Positions 6,151 to 31,876 are shown, numbered from the stretch's first letter. The stretch: DNA of 32,000 bases from Nitrosospira multiformis ATCC 25196 (GCF_000196355.1 NC_007614.1:480001-512000); one strand, 5' to 3'. Notes: generated by a model from the letters alone, not told the origin. Translations and numbers: made by a program.

Positions 6151-6325
6151 GGACGGACAGCGCTGCCTGTTTATCCCCGACAAGTTTGGTGCATCCTCGA
6201 AATCGAGCGTTGCGCGGGTTGCAGTGTTAAACCTTCAGTAGTCCAAATCAGATGAATACACTCATGTAAAAAAAACGGTTTTGAAGGTTTCACAGCCGTG
6301 TCCGGGAGCTAAGGAAAAAATCAGA

Positions 6326-7654
6326 ATGAAGTGCAGGCGAAAGCGCAGCAGCCGGATTCCGTACGGAGTAGGTTGTTTTTTATTGATCTTCATGAGCAAC
6401 AGCATTGTTCAGGCGGTTGACATAGCAGGGTGGTTGCGGGAGAACGGTGTAAGGGCGGGCGGGTGGATCAATGCGGGGGCAACCTATAACCCCGGTAATC
6501 CCGTCAACGGATACAATGGCCCCGTTACCTTTGCCGACCGCGCAAACCGGTTTCAGTTGAATCAGTTCAATCTATATCTCCAGCGCACGGTAGTCACGGA
6601 AGGCGAGGCTTTTGATCTCGGGGGGCGGGTCGATTTCATGTTCGGCACCGATGCGATCTATACCCAGGCCTTCGGCGTTCCGCCATTCGATGTGAATACC
6701 GGTCAAGTCTTGAATAGGGGCCACTGGGATCTGAATATATGCTGCTCATCGACCCGGACGTATGGTATCGCGCTACCCCAAGCGTATCTCGAGGCCTATA
6801 TACCGTTGGGTAATGGCTTGAACATCAAGGCAGGTCATTTTTATTCGCCGACAGGGTATGAAACCGTTCCTGCGCCCGACAATTTTTTTTACACTCACGC
6901 CTATACCTTTAACAATGGGGAGCCATTCACCCACACGGGTGCCGTAGGGAACTATACCGTCAACGGGAACTGGTCGGTGATGGGCGGCCTCATCACCGGG
7001 AGCGCAACCGGCGATTGGGATGGCGGATTCGACAGAGAGCTGGGAAACTGGGGAGGGCTGGGCGGTATTACCTGGGTCAGCGACGACAAAAGGACTTCGG
7101 CCAACATCACGGGGAGCTACAGTGCGACGTCCACCCGCAGCAACAGGCCATGGGGAATGTACAACATTGTGCTGCAACACAGGATCACACCGAAAACCCA
7201 TCTGGTTCTACACCACGTTCACGGCTATGCCGGCGGCGTTTTGCTGGGAGGGGTGCCAAAGAATGTCGAATGGTATGGCATCAATACCCACCTCTATTAT
7301 GACTTGTTGGAGGATCTCTCGGTGGGTATTCGCGGCGAATGGTTCCGGGACCGGGATGGTTTTCGCGTCTCTTCGCCCTTTCGCGTGGTAGCGGCGCTCA
7401 ACCATACCGGAATCAGTTTTGCAGGCGATTCTTCCACAGTGAGGGCGGCCCCTGCGGACTACTATGAAATCACCTTCGGAATGAACTGGAAGCCAGCGAA
7501 AAGGTTGCGGCTGGACTGGAAGCCGATGCAAAAGCTGAACGTTCGTCCAAATATCCGCTATGACCGTGCGGACGGCATTGACCATTCGCATCGGCCTTTC
7601 AACAACAAGAAGGATCAGATTATATTTTCTCTCGATGCGATGATTCCATTCTGA
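6326..7654 (+). CDS. Outer-membrane beta-barrel porin-like protein, paralog 1 (possibly the OmpL-like/BBP2 family; family name recalled from memory and unverified)
   Basis: I place the start at the ATG at 6326 (AAGGA RBS at 6311-6315) rather than the TTG at 6281 used by the ORF track. It has an N-terminal signal peptide (MKCRRKRSSRIPYGVGCFLLIFMSNSIVQA), Gly/aromatic-rich alternating strands, and a C-terminal ...SLDAMIPF ending in Phe, which is an OMP beta-signal. By eye it is about 60-65% identical to the ORF at 8291-9646. Confidence 0.8.
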   Translation: MKCRRKRSSRIPYGVGCFLLIFMSNSIVQAVDIAGWLRENGVRAGGWINAGATYNPGNPVNGYNGPVTFADRANRFQLNQFNLYLQRTVVTEGEAFDLGGRVDFMFGTDAIYTQAFGVPPFDVNTGQVLNRGHWDLNICCSSTRTYGIALPQAYLEAYIPLGNGLNIKAGHFYSPTGYETVPAPDNFFYTHAYTFNNGEPFTHTGAVGNYTVNGNWSVMGGLITGSATGDWDGGFDRELGNWGGLGGITWVSDDKRTSANITGSYSATSTRSNRPWGMYNIVLQHRITPKTHLVLHHVHGYAGGVLLGGVPKNVEWYGINTHLYYDLLEDLSVGIRGEWFRDRDGFRVSSPFRVVAALNHTGISFAGDSSTVRAAPADYYEITFGMNWKPAKRLRLDWKPMQKLNVRPNIRYDRADGIDHSHRPFNNKKDQIIFSLDAMIPF

Positions 7655-8290
7655 TAGGAAGGGGCGGGCACTCTGGAAGAAACTGGCTTATCGTGGCGAG
7701 AAATAAGAGTGGGGCAATAGGAAATAGTCTCACAGCCCGTTATTCCACCAACCCGGACTCCTGGCCATTCCCATGTCTTTGGACTACGTCCAGGGGGCGC
7801 GAGTGGAGATCGGACTCGGCCTTTGCCTGCATTTTTCGCGCTGCATCCTCAAAATACTCGCTCAAGGCATCGTGATTGCCGCGCATTCGCGTGTTCTGGA
7901 TGACGCAGCGCCCGTTCGTGTTCTGAACCGCTTCATGAGGGCTTAACTGCGCGCCACCGGCTAATAAACTCAGGGAGAAGCCCTAAAAAAAGTTCTTTTA
8001 TTCATGGACACCTCTTTTCACGTGCTCATTACGTACTCATCGGAGTGAGAACAAACACCCAATCTTTAAATTAACTGAATTGTCGATACTTTATCAAGCG
8101 TCCAATGTTATAAGTACCTGCTCCTGCCTGCCGCTTCCATCACTTTCGTTCATTCTCCATTTCTTTGTGAGAGAGCAGAATAACTTCACAAATACTTAAC
8201 AATAATCTAACACTTTCTTTATTTATCTCGTGTTACGTTTCAAACAGAATAACAATTTTCGTGGTAGTGTTTTGCCAAGGGGAGCCCATC

Positions 8291-9646
8291 ATGAAACGCC
8301 TACCGAAACGCAGAAGAGGGATGATCTTTGCCTCTGCGGTCAGCCTGTTTACAACTCTCGAGAATCCCGACAGCGCTTACGCCAATACCGCCTTGGAATG
8401 GTTCAACGACAATGGCATTAGACTCGGGGGCTGGATCAACGGTGGGGCGACATTCAATCCCAGCCAGCTCACCGGTTTCAATGGGCCAGTCACATTTGCC
8501 GATCGCTCCAACAGATTCCAGTTAAACCAGTTCAATATTTATGTGCAACGCCCGGTAGTAGCCGAGGGCAGCACCTGGGATTTCGGGGGGCGTATCGATT
8601 TCATGTTTGGAACGGATGCAATTTTTACCCAGGCTTATGGCGTTCCCGCGTTCGACGTGAACACAGGCCAGCCTTTAAACAGGAGCAATTGGGATCTTGA
8701 TGTGTGTTGCGCTTCAACCCGATATTATGGCATTGCGTTTCCGCAGGTTTTTGCCGAAGCCTATGTTCCCGTTGGGAACGGATTGAACGTCAAGGTAGGC
8801 CATTTTTACACTCCAATCGGTTACGAGTCGGTACCGGCGCCCGACAATTTCTTTTACACTCATGCCTATACGATGCAGTATGGAGAGCCGTTCACGCATA
8901 CTGGTGTGCTGGGCAACTATAAAATCACGCAAAACTGGACGTTCATGGGGGGCGTTACCACAGGTAGTGCCACTGGCGGTTGGGACGGGGGATTCGACAA
9001 GCAGTTGGGTAATTGGGGGGGGATTGCAGGCATTACCTGGACCAGCGAGGATATGGGAACGTCGGCCAATATCAGCGGAACCTACAGCGCAACCTCGACA
9101 CGCAGCGATGAACCGTGGATGTTGTACAGCATCGTGCTGAAGCATAAATTCACCGAAAAGACCCATTTTGTGCTGCAACACGACCACGGGTTCGCGGGAA
9201 ATGTTTTACTGAATAATGTCTTTTATAGTAACGTGATCAAGGATGCCGAATGGTACGGCATCAACACTCATCTGTATTACGATCTCATGCCGGAATTGAC
9301 GATCGGAGTGCGGGCCGAGTGGTTCCGCGACCGGGACGGGTTCCGTGTATTTTCACCGGGACGGGTGGCTGCCGCCACCGACAACCGGGGATTCAGTTAC
9401 GCGCTAGGCCGCAATCAGCTTGGCAACAGCACCAGCAGTCCGGCTGATTATTATGCAGTCACGGTAGGCATGAACTGGAGGGCGGCGAAGAGGTTGAAGC
9501 TCGACTGGAAGCCGTTGCAGCAGCTCAATATTCGTCCAAACGTTCGCTACGATGCCGCCGACGGATTACATGGCATCGATTATCGGCCCTTCGGGGGGCA
9601 TAAAGATCAGGTGGTTTTATCCCTTGATTTTATGGTTCCGTTTTGA
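8291..9646 (+). CDS. Outer-membrane beta-barrel porin-like protein, paralog 2
   Basis: I place the start at the ATG at 8291 (AAGGGGA RBS just upstream) rather than position 8261. Signal peptide is MKRLPKRRRGMIFASAVSLFTTLENPDSAYA and the C-terminus is ...SLDFMVPF. It is colinear with paralog 1 along its whole length, with shared blocks NGPVTFADR.NRFQLNQFN, DFMFGTDAI, VPAPDNFFYTHAYT and EWYGINTHLYYDL. Confidence 0.8.
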   Translation: MKRLPKRRRGMIFASAVSLFTTLENPDSAYANTALEWFNDNGIRLGGWINGGATFNPSQLTGFNGPVTFADRSNRFQLNQFNIYVQRPVVAEGSTWDFGGRIDFMFGTDAIFTQAYGVPAFDVNTGQPLNRSNWDLDVCCASTRYYGIAFPQVFAEAYVPVGNGLNVKVGHFYTPIGYESVPAPDNFFYTHAYTMQYGEPFTHTGVLGNYKITQNWTFMGGVTTGSATGGWDGGFDKQLGNWGGIAGITWTSEDMGTSANISGTYSATSTRSDEPWMLYSIVLKHKFTEKTHFVLQHDHGFAGNVLLNNVFYSNVIKDAEWYGINTHLYYDLMPELTIGVRAEWFRDRDGFRVFSPGRVAAATDNRGFSYALGRNQLGNSTSSPADYYAVTVGMNWRAAKRLKLDWKPLQQLNIRPNVRYDAADGLHGIDYRPFGGHKDQVVLSLDFMVPF

Positions 9647-17198: not shown

Positions 17199-18200
17199 TC
17201 AATCGAACGGATGAGGTTTGGGTGTATCCTTGCTCGAGGGGGGGAGAATAGGCAAGGTGAGATGGGGTTGTTTGCCGGTCAATGTCTTCAGAAATGCCAC
17301 GATTTTGGCATTTTCGTCCTTGGTGAAATTACGCCCCAATTGTATCCGGCCCATGGTATTTACCGCGTCTTCCAGGGTTGCCGCGGCCCCGTCATGGAAA
17401 TAGGGGTAGGTCAATTCCACATTTCGCAATGTAGGCACTTTGAAGAACAGGCGGTCCTCCTCTTTGCCGGTTACGGCAAAACGGCCTTCAGCCTTGCTCT
17501 GGGTTTTATAGGGTTCAAGTACGCCCATTTTCTGAAACGATGCCCCGCCTACGGCCGGTCCGTTGTGACAACCTGTGCAGCCCGCGTCCTTGAACAGTTT
17601 GTACCCTTCGAGTTCCGTCTTGTTGATGGCGTTCTTGTCGCCTTTGAGCCATTTGTCGAAACGGGAATCCGGCGTTACCAGTGTTTCTTCGAAGGCAGCG
17701 ATCGCGTCCGTTGCCATGCCTATATCGACCTTGTCCGAACTGTATATCTGCTTGAAGCGCGCCCTGTACTGGGGAATGGATTGCAGCACGCCCACTGCCA
17801 ATTCATGGCTGAATGCCATTTCCCCCGGATTGGCAATGGGACCGCCCGCCTGATCTTTCAGGTCCTTGGCGCGACCGTCCCAGAATTGGGCCAGACTCAG
17901 GCTGGAATTCAATACCGTGGGCGAATTGATCGGACCCTGGTGCCATTTGTGGCCAATGGATGAGGGGAGATTGTCGGATCCCCCCATACTCAGGTTGTGA
18001 CAGGAGTTGCACGAGATGAAGCCGGATTTGGAAAGACGGGGATCAAAAAAAAGCATTTTGCCCAGTTCCACCTTGTTTTCATTCTTGGGCTTGGCTGCCT
18101 CGATCGGTTTTATGGGTTCGTCGGCGGCAGCCGCCTGGGCAGGCGGAGCGACAATCGTTCCAACAGCTAGCAGCGACGTTATTAATGCCCGCAATATCAT
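17199..18200 (-). CDS. ccp: Periplasmic di-haem cytochrome c peroxidase (bacterial CCP/MauG family)
   Basis: 333-aa ORF with a signal peptide (…APPAQA), two CXXCH haem sites (CNSCH and CTGCH), and the conserved WDGRA and PTLRNV blocks. An AGGAGA RBS lies upstream. Confidence 0.9.
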   Translation of the reverse strand: MILRALITSLLAVGTIVAPPAQAAAADEPIKPIEAAKPKNENKVELGKMLFFDPRLSKSGFISCNSCHNLSMGGSDNLPSSIGHKWHQGPINSPTVLNSSLSLAQFWDGRAKDLKDQAGGPIANPGEMAFSHELAVGVLQSIPQYRARFKQIYSSDKVDIGMATDAIAAFEETLVTPDSRFDKWLKGDKNAINKTELEGYKLFKDAGCTGCHNGPAVGGASFQKMGVLEPYKTQSKAEGRFAVTGKEEDRLFFKVPTLRNVELTYPYFHDGAAATLEDAVNTMGRIQLGRNFTKDENAKIVAFLKTLTGKQPHLTLPILPPSSKDTPKPHPFD

Positions 18201-24737: not shown

Positions 24738-24754
24738 TAGCGAAATTGAATGCT

Positions 24755-24786
24755 ATATTGAAACTGACCGATATTGAAACTGACCG
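24755..24786. repeat. Perfect 16-bp tandem direct repeat (ATATTGAAACTGACCG x2)
   Basis: Read directly from the sequence: 24755-24770 is identical to 24771-24786. Degenerate ATTGAA/GTTGAC half-copies lie at about 24744 and 24787. The repeat sits between the divergent leuA and senC genes. Confidence 0.9.
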
Positions 24787-24832
24787 GTTGACTCTCCAGG
24801 AAGGGCTCCTCAAGAATTTTCGATGCTTCTCA

Positions 24833-25444
24833 ATGGGTAAGAACTTTGCCGGAAGCGGGAATTTTGGTTACGACCGGCTCGCGGCGGGTCTTGTGATTGC
24901 GCTTGCCATGGGCGCATGCAATCCGACAGAACAAGGACATATAAAGGAGGTCACGGGCCACTTGCCGGATTTGAGTTTTTCACTCAGCTCCGATGAGGGG
25001 CAGCCGGTTACAGCCAAAACATATGAGGGAAAAGTATTGCTCATGTATTTTGGATTTACACATTGCCGGGAAGAGTGTCCGATTTCCATGGCGCGTCTTA
25101 CGCGGGTAATGCATCTCCTCGGGGAAGACGCAAAGCGGACGCATATCCTCTTTGTAACCGTGGACCCGACGCGGGACGGTCCCAGGGAATTGCGTCGCTA
25201 TCTGGCGCAATTCAATCTCGCGCAGGCGACGGGATTGACCGGTACTGCGGATGAAATCGGGGAGCTTGCAAAACGATGCCGCAACGCATTCCGGCCGCAT
25301 TTTCCCCCTGGCGGAGATGGCGGCCTCATGCATGGCGATGCGGTCTATATATTTGACGCCCAGGGCCATGCCCGCCTACTGGCAACATCCGCCGATCCTG
25401 AAGAGACTCTGGCGGAAGATCTGCGGGATTTGCTTCCTTCCTGA
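24833..25444 (+). CDS. senC: SCO1/SenC copper chaperone (thioredoxin-like, CuA assembly)
   Basis: It has the CxxxC copper motif in FGFTHCREECP, a downstream conserved His (LMHGDAVYIFD), and an N-terminal anchor with a lipobox-like LAMGAC. I use the ATG at 24833. The track's TTG at 24746 would translate through the 16-bp DNA repeat. Confidence 0.87.
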   Translation: MGKNFAGSGNFGYDRLAAGLVIALAMGACNPTEQGHIKEVTGHLPDLSFSLSSDEGQPVTAKTYEGKVLLMYFGFTHCREECPISMARLTRVMHLLGEDAKRTHILFVTVDPTRDGPRELRRYLAQFNLAQATGLTGTADEIGELAKRCRNAFRPHFPPGGDGGLMHGDAVYIFDAQGHARLLATSADPEETLAEDLRDLLPS

Positions 25445-25478: not shown

Positions 25479-26303
25479 ATGGAATGGTTTTACTGGCTGG
25501 TGCCTTGGGAAGAGTCTATTCTGGTGGTTGCCGCCGCTGGGAGCGCCGCTCTTTTCTTTCCGAGAGGCTGCGCCTCGGTTCGCCCGTCGCTTCATCGCAA
25601 ATTGTGCTTCTGGGGTGGATTAAGCCTGGCATATCTCGTTTCTCACACTCAGCTCGATTATTACTCCGAGCATCAGTTTTTCATTCACCGGCTTCAGCAT
25701 CTTGCATTGCATCATCTCGGACCTTTTCTGATTGTATTGAGCAGGCCATGCCCGGTTCTTCTTGCGGGCATGCCGTCAAGGATGAGGCGGGCATTTCGTC
25801 TGATGGCGGGATGGAATTCCATTCGATATCCCGCTCAGGCTTTGTGCAATCCGGTCGTTGCAGTCGTACTGTTCAGCATGCTCATCGGATTCTGGTTGCT
25901 GCCTTCGATTCATTTTATGGCGATGATCGATTGGCGTCTCTATCGTCTGATGAACTGGAGCGTGTTTCTCAGCGGATTGGTTTTCTGGGGACTGGTCTTG
26001 ACTCCGGGCCCGGTGTTTGCCGTCAAGCTGTCCCCTGGCTCTCGCATTGGTATGATGCTTGCCATAATTCCGCCTCAAATCGTCATCGGCGCCATCATTT
26101 TCTTTACTGCTCATGAGTTGTATCCGATCTACACCATTTGCGGACGTGCTATTGGCGGAATCAACGCCCTTGCCGATCAACAGATCGGGGGCATCATTCT
26201 GTGGATACACGGTGCGATGATGAGCGCAGTCGGGATTCTGGTGGTCATCCTGAGGGAATTGATGCTTGCAGAATATCCGGAAGCCGGACAGAAAGTGGCA
26301 TGA
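25479..26303 (+). CDS. ctaG: Cytochrome c oxidase assembly factor CtaG (caa3-type, polytopic membrane protein)
   Basis: 274-aa multi-TM ORF with the family-typical His-rich motif HRLQHLALHHLGPFL and DQQIGGIILW. It lies directly downstream of senC. Confidence 0.82.
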   Translation: MEWFYWLVPWEESILVVAAAGSAALFFPRGCASVRPSLHRKLCFWGGLSLAYLVSHTQLDYYSEHQFFIHRLQHLALHHLGPFLIVLSRPCPVLLAGMPSRMRRAFRLMAGWNSIRYPAQALCNPVVAVVLFSMLIGFWLLPSIHFMAMIDWRLYRLMNWSVFLSGLVFWGLVLTPGPVFAVKLSPGSRIGMMLAIIPPQIVIGAIIFFTAHELYPIYTICGRAIGGINALADQQIGGIILWIHGAMMSAVGILVVILRELMLAEYPEAGQKVA

Positions 26304-26360: not shown

Positions 26361-27728
26361 TTATTCGTTCAGCGCTTCACGCATCAAATACACATCGCGA
26401 GTGGTCACAGGCGGAGCCTTGTTGCCCCAGCTGTTACGGATGAACGTAAGCACTTCAGCGATTTCCCGGTCAGTAAATCTTTCGGCATAGCCTGGCATTT
26501 TCTCCGGTTTCGGTCCCGTCTTTGTCCGCGGGCCTTTTCCTCCTTCCAGCATGAGCCGGATCAGGGAAGAGGCATTCTCCGAAAGCACGATCGAACTTCC
26601 GGATAGGGGAGGAAACTTTGGCGGCTTGCCACTTCCCTCGTTCCGATGACATTTGGCGCAGAAGCCACTATATATTCCCGCGCCGGGTTTCTCGGATCGG
26701 CTCATTCCGGCGGGAATGACAGCTGGCGTTCTGCGAGGGTTATACGATGACTTTTCTCCGGTGGCAGGAAGCGACTTGAGGTAATGGGCGACCGCGTCGA
26801 GATCCTCCTGGCGCAAGTACTGGGTGCTGTTTTCAATGACAGCGACCATGCTGCCAAATGCAGCGGTATGGCCACTATGGCCAGTCTTGAGAAACGCCGC
26901 AATCTCCTCTTCCGTCCATCTGCCCAGACCCGCTGCGGTGTTTCCGGTCAACTCCGGAGCAAACCAGTTATCTATCAGGGCACCGGTCAAATAGTCGGAT
27001 GAGGTTTCCGAATAGGCCTTTTCCTGATAGGCCAAACCGCGGGGGGTATGACAGGCACCGCAGTGACCGAGCGCCTGCACCAGGTACGCACCGCGATTCC
27101 ATTTTTCACCCCGATCAGCCCGGGGTTCGAACCGCTTGTGTTCAACAAAGGCAAGATCCCAGAACTTGAGGGTCCAGCGCTGATTGAAGGGGAATGGCAG
27201 GCGAGTCTGCGAGGGCGTGTGCCGCACCGGTTTCACCCCGTGCATGAAGTAGGCATATAACGCGCGCGCATCTTCATCCGACATTGCCGTGAATGACGGG
27301 TAAGGCATGGCTGGGTACAACCATTTACCGTCCTTCCTGATGCCGCCGCGCACAGCCCGGCTGAAATCCTCATAGCTGTAGCGGCCGATGCCGGTTTCCG
27401 GGTCAGGCGTAATATTGGTCGAATAAATGGTACCGAAGGGTGAATTGATCGCCAGCCCGCCCCCAAAAGCCGGATGCGCGGCTCCTGCCGTGTGACATCC
27501 GGTGCAGTCTGCGATAGTGGCGAGATAGGCGCCGCGTGTAACCAGTGCATCGAATGCGCTCTCATCCTTCCCGGCAGCCTCTGCGGCATGACCCGCAGCG
27601 GCAGTCGCAATGGACACCTGAGTGTCCGTCACGATTGCACCCATGGCAAGCAGGACAGCACTCAGAAGAATTCGAGTTTCTTTGCCCATCCGGATGATCC
27701 AGTCGGAAACCGTTCTGCGCGACTTCAT
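26361..27728 (-). CDS. Tri-haem cytochrome c, similar to the cytochrome subunit of membrane-bound alcohol/gluconate dehydrogenases
   Basis: It has three CXXCH sites (CTGCH, CGACH, CAKCH) and the family blocks GTIYSTNITPD, LYPAMPY and ALYAYFMHGVKPV, plus an N-terminal hydrophobic signal/anchor. I place the start at the ATG at 27728. 27752 and 27689 are alternatives. Confidence 0.88.
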   Translation of the reverse strand: MKSRRTVSDWIIRMGKETRILLSAVLLAMGAIVTDTQVSIATAAAGHAAEAAGKDESAFDALVTRGAYLATIADCTGCHTAGAAHPAFGGGLAINSPFGTIYSTNITPDPETGIGRYSYEDFSRAVRGGIRKDGKWLYPAMPYPSFTAMSDEDARALYAYFMHGVKPVRHTPSQTRLPFPFNQRWTLKFWDLAFVEHKRFEPRADRGEKWNRGAYLVQALGHCGACHTPRGLAYQEKAYSETSSDYLTGALIDNWFAPELTGNTAAGLGRWTEEEIAAFLKTGHSGHTAAFGSMVAVIENSTQYLRQEDLDAVAHYLKSLPATGEKSSYNPRRTPAVIPAGMSRSEKPGAGIYSGFCAKCHRNEGSGKPPKFPPLSGSSIVLSENASSLIRLMLEGGKGPRTKTGPKPEKMPGYAERFTDREIAEVLTFIRNSWGNKAPPVTTRDVYLMREALNE

Positions 27729-27733
27729 GTGCT

Positions 27734-28180
27734 TCAGATCCAGGCGCTGCATGATCGGATCGAAAGCACGGCGAAAGTGTTGAACAGGATCGCAACGATG
27801 AACACAAAGCTTGACATCATCCCCAGCATCGCCAGAAATCGCGCCTGCCCTTCATCTTTCTGAATGGGAAGCTGTTTATTCGACGCGTCTTCGGAGTAGC
27901 GGGCGAGGCTTCGCCAGGAGGCAAGAGCGATATAGCCGGAGATTAGAGCGGCGGCCAGGCAGGCAAAGCCTATTGTTGCCAGTATTGCCGTCAATCCGGG
28001 CCAAAGGGGGGCAGGAAGCGGAAACTGATGCGGATAGCAGGCATAGGCGGCGATCGGCGGGGTCAACGCCATTTGCGTTACCCAAGCGCCAGGTGCGCCG
28101 AAGAGCGCAAGCAATGTCCTGACCCGTGGCGGAGAATGAAGGAAGTGATGTTCTGTGGAAACAGTTTGTCTTGCATCCAT
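27734..28180 (-). CDS. Hypothetical 148-aa integral membrane protein in the subunit-IV slot of the oxidase operon
   Basis: The ATG at 28180 lies 7 nt after the coxC stop, and the ORF's stop at 27734 lies 5 nt before the cytochrome c ATG. It has three predicted hydrophobic helices and an N-terminal EHHFLH motif. I recognised no family. Confidence 0.6.
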   Translation of the reverse strand: MDARQTVSTEHHFLHSPPRVRTLLALFGAPGAWVTQMALTPPIAAYACYPHQFPLPAPLWPGLTAILATIGFACLAAALISGYIALASWRSLARYSEDASNKQLPIQKDEGQARFLAMLGMMSSFVFIVAILFNTFAVLSIRSCSAWI

Positions 28181-28187
28181 TTGAAGA

Positions 28188-28793
28188 TCATCCGCGCTGG
28201 AGATAAGGGGACAAATACAAGGCGGAGAAAACGAACAGCCAGACGACATCGACAAAATGCCAGTAAACCCCGCCGATGGTGATTGCAACATGGCGCTTGT
28301 GGTCAAAATAACCCATCATGGTCCAGGCGAGCAGGAGCAAAAGCACTCCCAGCCCGATAATCACATGGCACAAGTGAAAGCCGGTGATCGTAAAGTAGAG
28401 TGATCCGTACAGGTCGGAGTTGATGCTGAATGTCTTGTTTTTCCACTCCAGAAGCTGTATCGCGACAAAGGCGCTACCCAAAGCAATCGCGGCGATAAAT
28501 CCGAAAATGCTGGATCGTACTCCACCTTGCCGGATGCGCCGTTCTCCCGCCCAGAAAGCAGCGCTGCTGGCAAGCAGGATGATGGTATTGATGCCTGGAA
28601 TGAGCAGGCCCGGCAATCCGGTCGGGGGCCAGTCCTGTCCTGTTTGTGCCGCGAGGTAGAAGTAGGTGAACAGCAGGTATCCGAACAGGGAAGCCTCGGT
28701 CACGATGAGCGCGATCACTCCCCACCATCCGCCGGAGAGCTTACCAGCGCTTCCCACCGGCAAAGGGGTGACAACGGGGGCAGTCCCGCTCAC
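28188..28793 (-). CDS. coxC: Haem-copper oxidase subunit III (short, five-helix type)
   Basis: 201 aa when started at the GTG at 28793, which overlaps the coxA TGA (GTGA coupling). It has the conserved tail GFHLCHVIIGLGVLL...YWHFVDVVWLFVF. The 44-aa N-terminal extension in the ORF track overlaps coxA and is not hydrophobic. Confidence 0.88.
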   Translation of the reverse strand: MSGTAPVVTPLPVGSAGKLSGGWWGVIALIVTEASLFGYLLFTYFYLAAQTGQDWPPTGLPGLLIPGINTIILLASSAAFWAGERRIRQGGVRSSIFGFIAAIALGSAFVAIQLLEWKNKTFSINSDLYGSLYFTITGFHLCHVIIGLGVLLLLLAWTMMGYFDHKRHVAITIGGVYWHFVDVVWLFVFSALYLSPYLQRG

Positions 28794-30805
28794 GGGCCTT
28801 TTCCTCCTCTTCGGGCAGAGGCTGGGTCGTGCCTGGCAGTACGCTGACCCAGGTTCCTGCGCGGCCACATCCAGACACTCAACGCGGCACAGCTTAAGGC
28901 CGCCATCAATGCAGTGAATGTCCATGAATGCAGCAACAGGCCGACGAATAGCAACGAGACGAACAAACCGACAAGGAAAGGGGTATAGGAATCCTCCGGC
29001 ATTTTGAGGATGACAACCGGCTTTGCATCGATGGGCGAGGTGCCGAGTGTTTCCCGGCCCCGCATCAGCAGGTAACCTTCTTCCAATCTAGTCCGGGTAT
29101 GTTCTTTTTCTCCTTCGATCCGCCCCTCCCATAACGGGTGCCGGCTGGCGATCGTAGGAATAGTCGCAAAGTTATAAGCGGGCGGCGGGGAAGATACTGC
29201 CCATTCCAGGGTCGGCGCATCCCACGGATTGGCGCCCGCCCGGGTTCCACGTTTCAGGCTGAGGACGACATTGACGAGGAAGATCAGCACGCCAACGGCG
29301 AATATGAAGGATCCGACAGTCGTAATCAGGTTGACTTCGTCCCATCCCATGCGGGAAGGATAGGTATAAATGCGGCGCGGCATCCCGAGCAGTCCAGCGA
29401 TATGCATTGGAAAGAATCCGGCGTTGAATCCGATAAACATGGTCCAGAAACTCCACTTGCCCAGTTTTTCACTCATCATGCGCCCGGTGAATTTGGGAAA
29501 CCAGTAATAGATCGCTCCTACCACCGGAAACACGTTGATCCCAAGCAGGACATAATGCAGGTGCGCCACGATGAAGTAGGTTTCGTTAAGCTGCCAGTCG
29601 AGCGGCACCGCGGCTGTCATTACTCCCGACATGCCGCCGATGATGAACAGCGCGACGAAACCGGCAAAAAACAGAAAAGGGGTCTTGAATACGGGTTTTC
29701 CCAGCCAGATGGTCGCAATCCAGGCGAAGACGGCGACCGCGCTGGGAATGGAGATGACCATGCTGGCGGCGCCGAAAATCGACAGAGCCACTGTCGGCAG
29801 ACCGGTGGCGAACATATGATGGACCCACACCCCGAAACCGAGCAGCATGGTTGCCATGGTAGCTAGCGCCACTGCCGTGTAACCCACGAGCGGCCGGCGA
29901 CAGAATGTAGGCAGGGCATCGGAAACGATGCCCATTGCCGGAAGCACGACGACATAGACCCAGGGATGGCCGAAAATCCAGAACAAGTGCTGCCAAAGCA
30001 ATGGCTGACCGTTATTTGCGACATCAAAAAAATGCGCGCCTATCTGGCGATCAAGCCACAACAGAAAGAACGCGAGGCTGACGGCGGGGATTGCGAACAG
30101 GTTGGCCACGGACGCGGTGAGCGTTCCCCACACCAGGATGGGAACGCGGTTTATGGTCATGCCCGGCGCCCGCATCCTGAACAGCGTAACCACGAAATTA
30201 ACCGACCCTACCGTTGTGGAAATTCCGAGCAACACCATGCCGAGCGCAAAGACGTCGATATTGGGTCCGGTGTTGTATACCGGGCCCGAGAAAGGCACAT
30301 AATTGAACCAGCCCGCATTCGGCGCCTGCCCCAGAGGGAAGCTGATGTACATGAAGAGGCCGGCGAACAGAAAAATCCAGTAGGAGAGTGCATTGAGGCG
30401 CGGAAAGGCCATATCCCTGGAACCGAGCAAAAGCGGCCAGAGGTAGTTGGAGAAACCGGACAGAACCGGCAATGCATAGAGGAAAATCATGGTCACGCCA
30501 TGCATCGTGAAAAGCTGGTTGTATTGCTCCGGTGTCAGAAACGCCATATCCGGCCCGGCAAGCTGGATGCGCAGGAACAGCGCTTCGATTCCGCCGATCA
30601 CGAGGAAAAGAAAGGCCGTGACGAGATATCGTACTCCGATCGTTTTATGGTCTACTGTGGAGAGCCATCCGCGCCAACCTGGCGCCGTCTCCCAGATCTT
30701 CTCCAGACGCGCTTCGATTGGGGACCCCGCGGGAATACGTCCCACTTCCGGGATCCGTTCGAGAGGGGGGTCGATGCGATGCCGGGTGGCGTCGATAGCA
30801 GCCAT
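28790..30805 (-). CDS. coxA: Haem-copper oxidase subunit I (A-family-like, 14-helix long form) with atypical proton-pathway residues
   Basis: 671-aa ORF. Metal ligands present are H102 (MHGV), H280 and Y284 (GHPWVY), H329/H330 (WVHHMF), and H415/H417 (AHLHYV), plus the GMPRR motif. The atypical residues are W282 in place of Glu and A358 in place of Lys. Confidence 0.95.
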   Translation of the reverse strand: MAAIDATRHRIDPPLERIPEVGRIPAGSPIEARLEKIWETAPGWRGWLSTVDHKTIGVRYLVTAFLFLVIGGIEALFLRIQLAGPDMAFLTPEQYNQLFTMHGVTMIFLYALPVLSGFSNYLWPLLLGSRDMAFPRLNALSYWIFLFAGLFMYISFPLGQAPNAGWFNYVPFSGPVYNTGPNIDVFALGMVLLGISTTVGSVNFVVTLFRMRAPGMTINRVPILVWGTLTASVANLFAIPAVSLAFFLLWLDRQIGAHFFDVANNGQPLLWQHLFWIFGHPWVYVVVLPAMGIVSDALPTFCRRPLVGYTAVALATMATMLLGFGVWVHHMFATGLPTVALSIFGAASMVISIPSAVAVFAWIATIWLGKPVFKTPFLFFAGFVALFIIGGMSGVMTAAVPLDWQLNETYFIVAHLHYVLLGINVFPVVGAIYYWFPKFTGRMMSEKLGKWSFWTMFIGFNAGFFPMHIAGLLGMPRRIYTYPSRMGWDEVNLITTVGSFIFAVGVLIFLVNVVLSLKRGTRAGANPWDAPTLEWAVSSPPPAYNFATIPTIASRHPLWEGRIEGEKEHTRTRLEEGYLLMRGRETLGTSPIDAKPVVILKMPEDSYTPFLVGLFVSLLFVGLLLHSWTFTALMAALSCAALSVWMWPRRNLGQRTARHDPASARRGGKGP

Positions 30806-30814
30806 ACTCTAGTT

Positions 30815-31876
30815 CTAGTCCAGTGTCGAAAGATAGGAGGCCAGTGCTGAAGCTTCACTGTCCGATAATGCAATACTTGGCATGCGTGCTCCCGGCTTGA
30901 AGTATTGTGCGCGGGTAATCCACTCCATCAGGTGATCCGGTGTATTGGTCAACAGTCCGGCAGCAATGCGACCGCGCGAGTTCAGATGCGTGAGATCAGG
31001 ACCGTGCAGGCCTTCCGCTTCCGTTCCACGCACCGCGTGGCATCCCCCGCAGCGATCCATGAACAGCTTGTATCCATGCTCATTGTGTTCTGACACTGGG
31101 AAAGCCGTGCGGCGCTGGGCCTCTTGCCATTTCTCGAAATCCCGATCGCTTTCTGCAATCACTTCCAGATTCATATGGGCGTGGGCCGCTCCACAAAATT
31201 GTGCGCATTGACCGGCATAAATGCCGGGGACGTCTGCCTGAATCCACTTCTGATTGACCAGGCCCGGAATCATTTGAGTTTTTCCGGCGAGTACAGGTAC
31301 CCAGAACGCATGAATGACGTCCGCGCTTTTCAACTTGAGCAGCACCGGTCTGCCTACAGGTATATGAATTTCATTGGCGGTCACAAAACGTTTCGCCGGA
31401 TCGCCATGCTCGTATTCAATGTTCCACCACCAGTCGTAACCCGTTACGGTCAGGGTGAGGACTGGAGTTTCGGTGGGCTTGGCAACCGCATTGAGCACGG
31501 TCAGGAAATGAACGGTGAGCCCCGCCAATATGAAGGTGGAAATCCCTGTACCGATATAAACCCATTTGAGTCCTCCGCTCTCGGCCCCGATCATGCCGGA
31601 GTCGGCAGAGCTGCGCTTGCGAACTATGGCGATTACCAGTAGCAGTATGACGATAAGGGTAATGGCGGAGAGCAAAGCCGTCATCAGCCACCCCAGATGC
31701 ATTACGGGCGTGGCGGCAGGGCCGTAGCTGTGCAGGAAATAGTTTAAAGGGGTGCTGAGCGTGTCTGCTGCTTCGGATGGTCTTGCAGCGACCATGGATG
31801 GCGCCAGAAGCGTTATCCGGAAACGTAGGTTTTTTATTGCCGGCCTGGAATCGAAACCTGACTTGGAAGCTTTCAT
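30815..31876 (-). CDS. coxB: Haem-copper oxidase subunit II with a C-terminal mono-haem cytochrome c domain (caa3-type)
   Basis: 353-aa ORF with two N-terminal TM helices. The cupredoxin CuA site is H(AFWVP)-35 residues-CAQFCGAAHAHM. The C-terminal cytochrome c domain has CGGCH with a distal Met in GARMP. Confidence 0.92.
   Translation of the reverse strand: MKASKSGFDSRPAIKNLRFRITLLAPSMVAARPSEAADTLSTPLNYFLHSYGPAATPVMHLGWLMTALLSAITLIVILLLVIAIVRKRSSADSGMIGAESGGLKWVYIGTGISTFILAGLTVHFLTVLNAVAKPTETPVLTLTVTGYDWWWNIEYEHGDPAKRFVTANEIHIPVGRPVLLKLKSADVIHAFWVPVLAGKTQMIPGLVNQKWIQADVPGIYAGQCAQFCGAAHAHMNLEVIAESDRDFEKWQEAQRRTAFPVSEHNEHGYKLFMDRCGGCHAVRGTEAEGLHGPDLTHLNSRGRIAAGLLTNTPDHLMEWITRAQYFKPGARMPSIALSDSEASALASYLSTLD

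Follow-up and report, generated by a model that had tools for sequence, protein, structure and literature searches.

A caa3-type A-family oxidase of Nitrosospira multiformis lacks three canonical proton-pathway residues and may serve periplasmic dehydrogenase chains

Nitrosospira multiformis ATCC 25196 encodes an A-family haem-copper oxidase that lacks three canonical proton-pathway residues and belongs to a clade in which these residues are likewise replaced. We analysed a stretch of 32,000 nucleotides of its genome (GCF_000196355.1, NC_007614.1:480001-512000), here called the window, with positions counted from its first letter. The gene for subunit I, coxA (28790-30805, minus strand; 671 amino acids, ATG to TGA), lies in an oxidase operon with the order coxB-coxA-coxC-orf4, followed by a trihaem cytochrome c gene, all on the minus strand. 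Based on sequence comparison, we read the product as an O2-reducing caa3-type A-family oxidase with a rebuilt proton supply, which would serve periplasmic pyrroloquinoline quinone (PQQ)-dehydrogenase/c-cytochrome chains, and we give this reading a probability of roughly 0.5.

The CoxA product is 100% identical to ABB73767.1 / WP_011379821.1. Pfam COX1 matched it along its whole length with 511 bits, and the NCBIfam equivalog TIGR02891 (CtaD_CoxA) gave 706.5 bits, above the cut-off of 670.75. Using HMMER, the best PDB match was Mycobacterium CtaD (6adq_F, 504 bits), with the other A-family structures following at 482 bits for B. subtilis aa3-600, 460 for Thermus caa3, 406-410 for E. coli bo3, ~369 for the aa3 enzymes of R. 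sphaeroides and Paracoccus, and 337 for the bovine enzyme, whereas B-family ba3 structures scored ~58 bits. Because TIGR02891 exceeds its cut-off and A-family structures reach 504 bits versus ~58 for ba3, CoxA is by sequence an A-family haem-copper oxidase subunit I. It has 12 transmembrane (TM) helices plus two C-terminal helices, and the secondary structure of an AlphaFold2 (AF2) model built from 34 close homologues also comprises 14 helices; the mean predicted local distance difference test score (pLDDT) of this model was 63.5, which is low confidence, and its helix boundaries alone were used.

A first-pass annotation, made from the window sequence alone, had proposed that CoxA carries Trp in place of the Glu that ends the D-pathway and Ala in place of the K-pathway Lys. 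Both replacements are real, as judged from the Pfam COX1 profile match and from ungapped blocks of the HMMER alignment with 6adq_F, where CoxA 'fwifghpWvyvvvlp' stands opposite 'fwffghpEvyiialp' in helix VI, and 'ipsavAvfawi' opposite 'vptgiKffnwi' in helix VIII. The Trp282 codon (TGG, 29960-29962, minus strand) is at the position of R. sphaeroides E286, and the Ala358 codon (GCC, 29732-29734, minus strand) is at that of K362, both exactly where they had been placed. The alignment had also been described as gap-free over roughly 250 residues, but against Mycobacterium CtaD there are small indels near 157, 266 and 336-337, outside both motifs. Every residue that had been listed as retained is present in the alignment, namely all haem and CuB His residues (H102, H280, H329, H330, H415 and H417), the cross-link Tyr Y284 (HPxVY, helix VI), the Arg pair R477/R478, and the D-channel residues N120, D131, N138, S141, S196, T197, T198 and N203, with the six His ligands and Y284 being invariant in 81/81 aligned sequences.

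Two subfamilies are recognised in the A family, A1 with the motif XGHPEVY and A2 with YSHPXVY (2021 review, PMC8361435). The CoxA motif FGHPWVY matches neither, so the protein is not a textbook A1 or A2 enzyme, and the A2-type Tyr-Ser pair is also absent as had been noted, its positions being occupied by F278 and G279. Separately, residues of the Mg/Mn site are non-canonical in CoxA, with the His-Asp pair of helix IX-X replaced by Asn-Glu (N407/E408).

Conservation of these features was assessed in the 120 closest homologues from a database of 5.8 billion sequences, which have 71-100% identity to CoxA. HPWVY was present in 119/119 that fitted the motif pattern, with one sequence not fitting it, and Lys was present in 0/112 that fitted the helix VIII pattern. 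In addition, a genome scan with one genome per species yielded 80 oxidase loci, which were grouped as 30 W clade, 18 Q clade and 32 canonical. The W-clade loci (~56-97% identity) have HPWVY, with A, S or Q at position 358, and include Nitrosospira, Methylobacter, Paraburkholderia, Caballeronia, Chitinasiproducens, Sphingomonas, Hyphomicrobium, Bradyrhizobium, Methylocystis, Roseovarius, Steroidobacteraceae and two Gemmatimonadota. The Q-clade loci (47-56% identity), in which position 282 is E, D or L and position 358 is Gln in 18/18, are chiefly from Actinomycetota, plus Halomonas, Mesorhizobium and others, while the canonical group has E at 282 and K at 358 in 32/32 loci. When the window is counted with the 30 W-clade loci, W282 is present in 31/31 sequences and Lys at 358 in 0/31, and the A2-type Tyr-Ser positions are F or W, and G or A, across the clade.

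A neighbour-joining tree of 507 columns, which omitted the two diagnostic columns (282 and 358) and included no curated reference sets, recovered a clade without the Lys (W plus Q clades; hereafter no-Lys clade) in 200/200 bootstraps and the W clade in 149/200. On these alignments the W clade is nested inside a robust no-Lys A-family clade. Furthermore, comparison of coxA between two N. multiformis strains, that of the window and Nl7, gave a ratio of non-synonymous to synonymous substitution rates (dN/dS) of 0.088, which shows that the gene is clearly maintained by selection. W282 and the absence of Lys are, across the sequences compared, fixed features of the clade, and chance or sequencing error is ruled out. 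A search of the open-access literature for the HPWVY variant, or for the locus tags Nmul_A0456 to Nmul_A0461, returned nothing on the variant, although this is weak evidence.

Relatives at 60-80% identity were also found in 23 plasmid or megaplasmid records (e.g. NZ_CP139088.1 and NZ_CP020399.1), and this frequent megaplasmid carriage, together with the patchy distribution across phyla, suggests that W-clade operons have spread horizontally. Hosts with the genes on megaplasmids or secondary replicons include Paraburkholderia, Caballeronia, Burkholderia multivorans and cenocepacia, Mesorhizobium, Methylocella and Methylocystis. In the W-clade oxidases of Burkholderiaceae, subunits I and III are fused.

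Subunit II is encoded by coxB (30815-31876, minus strand) and has a CuA site and a fused C-terminal cytochrome c domain of the caa3 type. It matched Pfam COX2 and Cytochrom_C, scored 151.9 bits with TIGR02866 (cut-off 147.7), and its best PDB match was Thermus caa3 subunit II (2yev_B, 1.7e-45). Aligned W-clade CoxB sequences conserve the CuA ligands (H189, C224, C228, H232 and M235) as well as the CGGCH motif, and with both the CuA ligands and the C-terminal CxxCH conserved the enzyme is a caa3-type cytochrome c oxidase and not a quinol oxidase. The K-channel entrance Glu (R. sphaeroides E101, in the TM2 motif L-E-x-W-T..P) is Tyr107 in the window CoxB (codon 31556-31558), and across the loci 31/32 canonical sequences have Glu in this column, while W-clade sequences have Y, V or L and Q-clade sequences V or L. 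By this alignment, residue loss is wider than the first-pass annotation had described, with a third canonical proton-path residue gone too, which adds to the departure from a standard A1 or A2 enzyme that it had recognised. The canonical set of D- and K-channel residues is thus incomplete: the D131 entrance is kept, but W282 takes the place of E, A358 that of K, and Y107 that of the subunit II Glu. At the Mg/Mn site, the window CoxB has Gln (residue 226, CAQFCG) in place of the Glu that canonically lies between the CuA cysteines, and in the W clade this position is E in 18 sequences and Q in 12. Subunit III, encoded by coxC (28188-28793, minus strand), is a short five-helix form (Pfam COX3, 3.7e-31); its GTG start (28791-28793) overlaps the coxA stop and lies downstream of a GAGGAGG ribosome-binding site, and the coxA/coxC overlap is arranged likewise in the Methylocella annotation.

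Several fixed residues in the W clade are consistent with a rebuilt proton supply. Thr316 and Thr319 in helix VII (codons within 29849-29860, minus strand) are each Thr in 31/31 W-clade sequences, and these clade-specific invariant hydroxyls are candidates for the lining of a remodelled K-type path. Column 316 is Gly in 29/32 Lys-bearing sequences and never Gly otherwise, with Glu in 8/18 Q-clade and Thr in 31/31 W-clade sequences, so that columns 316 and 358 covary as G with K, E with Q, and T with A or S. Helix periodicity, together with the helix limits of the AF2 model (VII 309-333, VIII 337-368), predicts that both Thr residues share a helix face with the CuB ligands H329/H330 and lie at the depth of residue 358. 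Further W-clade-specific and nearly invariant polar residues are R59, Y110, S116, S119, T230, C302, T397 and N424. Among changes fixed on the W branch in TM helices, seven are from non-polar to polar and three are the reverse, one of the latter being a second Glu-to-Trp replacement at position 250 (codon 30056-30058), where helix V ends on the P-side. Glu is found here in 8/12 actinobacterial sister sequences and Trp in 29/31 W-clade sequences. An alignment of W, Q and canonical sequences revealed no W-clade-specific Asp, Glu or His in subunit I. Position 282 is variable (E, D, L, A or W) solely within the no-Lys clade, which suggests that the Glu perhaps became dispensable once the K-path had changed. 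Overall, because the D-channel entrance is conserved and new Thr residues would line the K-channel region, the proton supply looks remodelled rather than abolished. The non-pumping enzyme that the first-pass annotation had also considered is conceivable.

The strongest functional clue comes from the gene neighbourhood, as read from tblastn counts over the 80 loci. A XoxF-like PQQ methanol/ethanol dehydrogenase gene is nearby in 17/30 W-clade loci and a gene for an AdhB-like cytochrome in 11/30, and 27/30 have one or the other, with Roseovarius and two truncated contigs as the exceptions. Among the 50 non-W loci, 0 have a XoxF-like gene and 1 has an AdhB-like one (Fisher p = 1.2e-9, uncorrected for phylogeny), and the XoxF-like module never adjoins the sampled E-bearing relatives. 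The XoxF-like dehydrogenases scored 609-647 bits with TIGR03075, have the D-x-D signature, and have as best PDB match the lanthanide enzyme XoxF of Methylacidiphilum (4mae, 574 bits). The gene is usually accompanied by those for a MoxJ_2/XoxJ-like binding protein and a small c-type cytochrome, with examples of the module in loci L012 (10978-14361), L021 (3636-7014) and L081 (12400-16230). On a Methylocella tundrae plasmid, the NCBI Prokaryotic Genome Annotation Pipeline (PGAP) lists coxB, ctaD, cox3, a hypothetical protein and a c-type cytochrome, with an assembly protein, a c-type cytochrome, a substrate-binding protein and a PQQ dehydrogenase adjoining these, and a Burkholderia multivorans replicon has coxB, ctaD (as a fusion of subunits I and III), a hypothetical protein and cytochrome c. 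Several W-clade loci also have a small gene directly upstream of coxB (L007 5729-6280, L013, L014 and L081 7495-7890), which PGAP names 'heme-binding protein' in Methylocella and for which the L007 copy matches NCBIfam PRK09732.

In the window, coxC is followed by orf4 (27734-28180, minus strand), which encodes a protein of 148 amino acids with three predicted TM helices and two conserved Cys residues. It matched no Pfam or NCBIfam family, and no Pfam family even at E = 5. Using jackhmmer, an orf4 homologue was found directly after coxC in 28/30 W-clade and 16/18 Q-clade loci (44/48 of the no-Lys clade) and in 0/32 canonical loci, with examples at L001 10587-11000, L017 10585-11037 and L081 11580-12056, and it corresponds to the 'hypothetical protein' annotated in Methylocella and B. 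multivorans. We regard orf4 as a putative extra subunit and, from this distribution, a hallmark of the no-Lys clade.

The orf4 gene overlaps by 19 nucleotides the start of the AdhB-like trihaem cytochrome c gene (26361-27752, minus strand), the product of which has the haem motifs CTGCH, CGACH and CAKCH in three Cytochrom_C stretches. Its PDB match is the cytochrome c subunit of alcohol dehydrogenase (quinone) (8gy2_B, 2.2e-114), and it also matches cytochrome subunits of glucose and fructose dehydrogenases. The alignment ends at residue 434 of 478 in AdhB, the last ~44 residues being without counterpart in the window protein; this missing C-terminal tail is the membrane anchor of AdhB. There is no dehydrogenase gene beside the trihaem cytochrome gene in the window, and no xoxF anywhere in its 32 kb. 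A trihaem cytochrome gene is found at the equivalent position in Methylobacter, Paraburkholderia, Caballeronia and Burkholderia operons.

The residue states and their conservation, the clade structure, the gene linkage and the purifying selection were observed here, and from them we infer O2 as the substrate and propose a proton route and an electron donor as follows. The wider no-Lys clade would have lost the K-path Lys and the subunit II entrance Glu, changed the helix VII position from Gly to Glu or Thr, and gained the small subunit orf4. Replacement of the D-path Glu by Trp would then have occurred in the nested W clade, with subsequent fixation of the hydroxyl and amide residues T316, T319, T397, N424, Y110, S119 and T230. 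Protons would probably reach the binuclear centre by a Ser/Thr/Tyr-lined K-type route, by analogy with B-family ba3, where Ile replaces the Glu and Thr the Lys, and pumping may be reduced or otherwise organised. The enzyme would act as a dedicated terminal oxidase of periplasmic PQQ-dehydrogenase or c-cytochrome chains, for which the donor would be XoxF-XoxG in most relatives and probably, as the immediate donor, the AdhB-like trihaem cytochrome in Nitrosospira. In a bolder form, which we hold tentatively, a widespread A-family clade would reduce O2 without the D-path Glu, the K-path Lys or the subunit II Glu by means of a proton-delivery architecture that no characterised haem-copper oxidase has, having evolved as a dedicated terminal oxidase for chains with lanthanide-type XoxF and PQQ dehydrogenases; the route might then be a new path lined by Thr, Ser and Asn (helix VII, possibly with orf4), or uptake from the periplasm.

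Several observations weigh against this proposal. T316 and T319 are placed in the K-path by helix periodicity and by the low-confidence AF2 model (pLDDT 63.5), and an entrance carboxylate for the new K-type route was not identified. D131 is kept in 30/31 W-clade sequences, N138, S196 and N203 in 31/31 each, and T197 and T198 in 29/31 each, with N120 lost in only 5/31, and such conservation of the D-channel entrance is not predicted by a purely B-like single-channel model. For the electron donor, the neighbourhood statistics leave shared ancestry uncorrected, no PQQ dehydrogenase gene adjoins the oxidase operon in the window, and to our knowledge N. multiformis is not known to oxidise alcohols.

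The same D-channel conservation would be expected of a conventional proton-pumping A-type oxidase in which another residue stands in for the Glu and the D-channel carries both pumped and chemical protons, although we consider this explanation unlikely. The stand-in could be Tyr110 (helix II), bound water together with the S196/T197/T198 cluster, or a residue of orf4, and the A2 subfamily sets a precedent for a relocated proton shuttle (PMC8361435). The exchange of F110 for Y falls on the same branch as that of E282 for W, with Y110 in 29/31 W-clade sequences versus F in 18/18 of the sister group, and S116, S119, T197 and T198 add hydroxyls along the D-path, whose entrance and lining are strongly conserved. 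However, Mycobacterium CtaD has Tyr110 alongside a normal Glu, so Y110 alone is no substitute, and from helix periodicity residue 110 is predicted to face nearer to the haem a side than to residue 282. Moreover, Phe and Gly or Ala occupy the A2 Tyr-Ser positions, subunit I has gained no clade-specific Asp, Glu or His, and the joint loss of K358 and the subunit II Glu is left unexplained. Alternatively, with both cytoplasmic pathways disabled, the enzyme could be a non-electrogenic or weakly coupled electron sink that takes its chemical protons from the periplasm as in cNOR, through which periplasmic PQQ dehydrogenases could turn over fast, free of back-pressure from the membrane potential. All three canonical N-side ionisable residues are gone (E286, K362 and subunit II E101 in R. 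sphaeroides numbering), linkage to periplasmic dehydrogenase modules is tight, and the genes form an accessory set that is often megaplasmid-borne, as the 23 plasmid records with relatives at 60-80% identity illustrate. Even so, we judge a sink improbable, as D131, N138 and N203 are conserved, the new Thr residues are in the N-side half of helix VII, no W-clade-specific acidic residues were found on the P-side that could form a periplasmic proton path, and purifying selection on this large multi-subunit enzyme is strong.

The first-pass annotation had raised the lead of a nitric oxide (NO) reductase of the sNOR type, and an enzyme of this kind, or a new one derived from the A family, could detoxify NO in ammonia oxidisers and methanotrophs. 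The gene does occur in Nitrosospira, Methylobacter, Methylomicrobium and Methylocystis, which all handle NO. Typically, cNOR and qNOR have lost proton-channel residues (PMC11214002), and the newer NO reductase families (sNOR, eNOR, bNOR, gNOR and nNOR) are defined by loss of the active-site Tyr, with sNOR as a neighbour of the B family (Murali et al. 2024, PMC11214002). In CoxA, however, the active-site Tyr and the three CuB His residues are kept and invariant across the alignment, a CuA subunit II is present, the score is above the A-family CtaD cut-off, and the affinity to the B family expected of sNOR was not seen in profile or structure scores. The relatives are mostly Paraburkholderia, Caballeronia, Burkholderia, Sphingomonas, Bradyrhizobium and Gemmatimonadota, that is, mostly non-nitrifying heterotrophs and methylotrophs, and they adjoin XoxF rather than nitrogen-oxide genes. 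Identity as sNOR or another of the defined families was rejected on the invariance of Y284 and the A-family assignment by TIGR02891 and structure scores, set against the published definition (PMC11214002), and an NO reductase of either kind seems very improbable. An extra oxidase without residues that are essential in model enzymes might also be a decaying or non-functional paralogue, but dN/dS is 0.088, the metal ligands do not vary between phyla, the operon is complete and accompanied by assembly factors, and the derived residues are themselves fixed, and these conservation data effectively refute it. The CoxMNOP alternative oxidase was also considered and rejected, on the one description that was found, according to which the Pseudomonas pseudoalcaligenes KF707 enzyme has a dihaem subunit II, a different architecture.

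Compared with known systems, the proposed remodelled oxidase shares with the A1 aa3/caa3 enzymes (Mycobacterium CtaD, R. sphaeroides and P. denitrificans) the fold, ~45-50% identity, the metal ligands, the helix VI His-Tyr, subunit III, the D-channel entrance Asp/Asn and the Arg pair, and its CuA subunit II with fused cytochrome c domain is shared with Thermus caa3. It differs from A1 in having Trp for Glu, Ala for Lys (helix VIII), no subunit II Glu, the extra orf4, and Thr, Asn and Tyr residues that are specific to the W clade (helices II, V, VII, IX and X). Like the A2 enzymes (YSHPXVY; Rhodothermus and Thermus caa3), which are functional without the helix VI Glu, it is of the A family and has a caa3-type subunit II, but it has F278/G279 and no Tyr-Ser, whereas A2 enzymes keep the K-path Lys (among the hits, sequences with FWFYSHPAVY have IPTGIK). 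In the ba3 oxidases, a hydrophobic residue takes the place of the Glu, the Lys is missing, and the only proton path is a K analogue with a Ser/Thr/Tyr lining. The likeness of ba3 to the window enzyme would be functional only, by analogy, as there is no homology at the subfamily level (~58 vs 504 bits), and the D-channel entrance residues of the window enzyme have no equivalents in ba3. With sNOR (norSY), the window enzyme shares the superfamily, ammonia-oxidiser hosts, a CuA-type subunit II, a SenC/SCO neighbour and altered proton channels, but sNOR is B-family-related and is missing the active-site Tyr (PMC11214002), whereas CoxA is an A-family protein that keeps it.

Clusters of cox genes associated with xoxF3 have been described in Acidobacteria and Gemmatimonadetes, with genes for CoxII, CoxI, CoxIII, a small hypothetical protein, CtaG and a c-type cytochrome, and without comment on channel residues (PMC10875860). 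The cox gene order in these clusters equals that in the window, and the link to XoxF/XoxG/XoxJ is seen in 17/30 of the W-clade relatives, including the two Gemmatimonadota loci, but the window is without xoxF and has the AdhB-like trihaem cytochrome in its place. This cytochrome has the three haem c motifs of AdhB/FdhC-type trihaem subunits (2.2e-114 to 8gy2_B), but unlike AdhB it is encoded in an oxidase operon without a dehydrogenase subunit and is missing the C-terminal tail.

Proton gating and pumping in haem-copper oxidases are debated, and most mechanistic models centre on the helix VI Glu. A clade with an A-type O2 centre and a D-channel entrance, but with Trp at the Glu position and no ionisable groups in the K-path, would be a natural experiment for such models, and it shows that the usual division of the A family into A1 and A2 is incomplete. 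The near-obligate linkage to XoxF- or AdhB-type genes suggests an unrecognised respiratory branch dedicated to periplasmic alcohol oxidation in methanotrophs, Burkholderiaceae, Alphaproteobacteria and Gemmatimonadota. In Nitrosospira, the enzyme would be an accessory oxidase and should not be counted as sNOR in genome surveys related to N2O.

Two genes for likely maturation factors lie on the plus strand, convergent with the oxidase operon. These encode a Caa3_CtaG-type oxidase assembly factor (25479-26303; Pfam PF09678, 9.9e-49) and a SCO1/SenC copper chaperone (24746-25444; Pfam PF02630, 1.1e-32). A gene for a dihaem cytochrome c peroxidase of the CCP/MauG family (17199-18200, minus strand) is 6 kb from the oxidase cluster, and two tandem paralogous genes on the plus strand (6281-7654 and 8261-9646) encode BBP2 (OmpL-like) beta-barrel porins. 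The remaining genes of the window are housekeeping genes, comprising corA, ppx, phoU, rpiA, ilvA, purA, a hisZ-like gene, hflK, hflX, proS and leuA, and a scan for promoters and terminators gave no more sites than in shuffled sequence.

The Q clade has a further unusual variant of the proton path. A second branch of it, formed by L041, L044, L046, L047, L052 and L078 from Halomonas, Mesorhizobium, Noviherbaspirillum, Litorilinea and Caldilineaceae, keeps Glu282 but has a rewired D-channel, with N120 changed to I or V, S116 mostly to E (Q in one), N203 mostly to E (S in one), and non-hydroxyl residues at positions 197 and 198. In the Actinomycetota, Q-clade loci L031, L033, L035, L037, L043 and L045 adjoin qcrC/qcrA/qcrB-like genes (e.g. 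L033 11043-14948), and because of these neighbours their oxidases may be the oxidase of a bcc-aa3-type supercomplex, despite having neither the K-path Lys nor the subunit II Glu. Several of these qcr-adjoining oxidases have Glu316 on helix VII instead.

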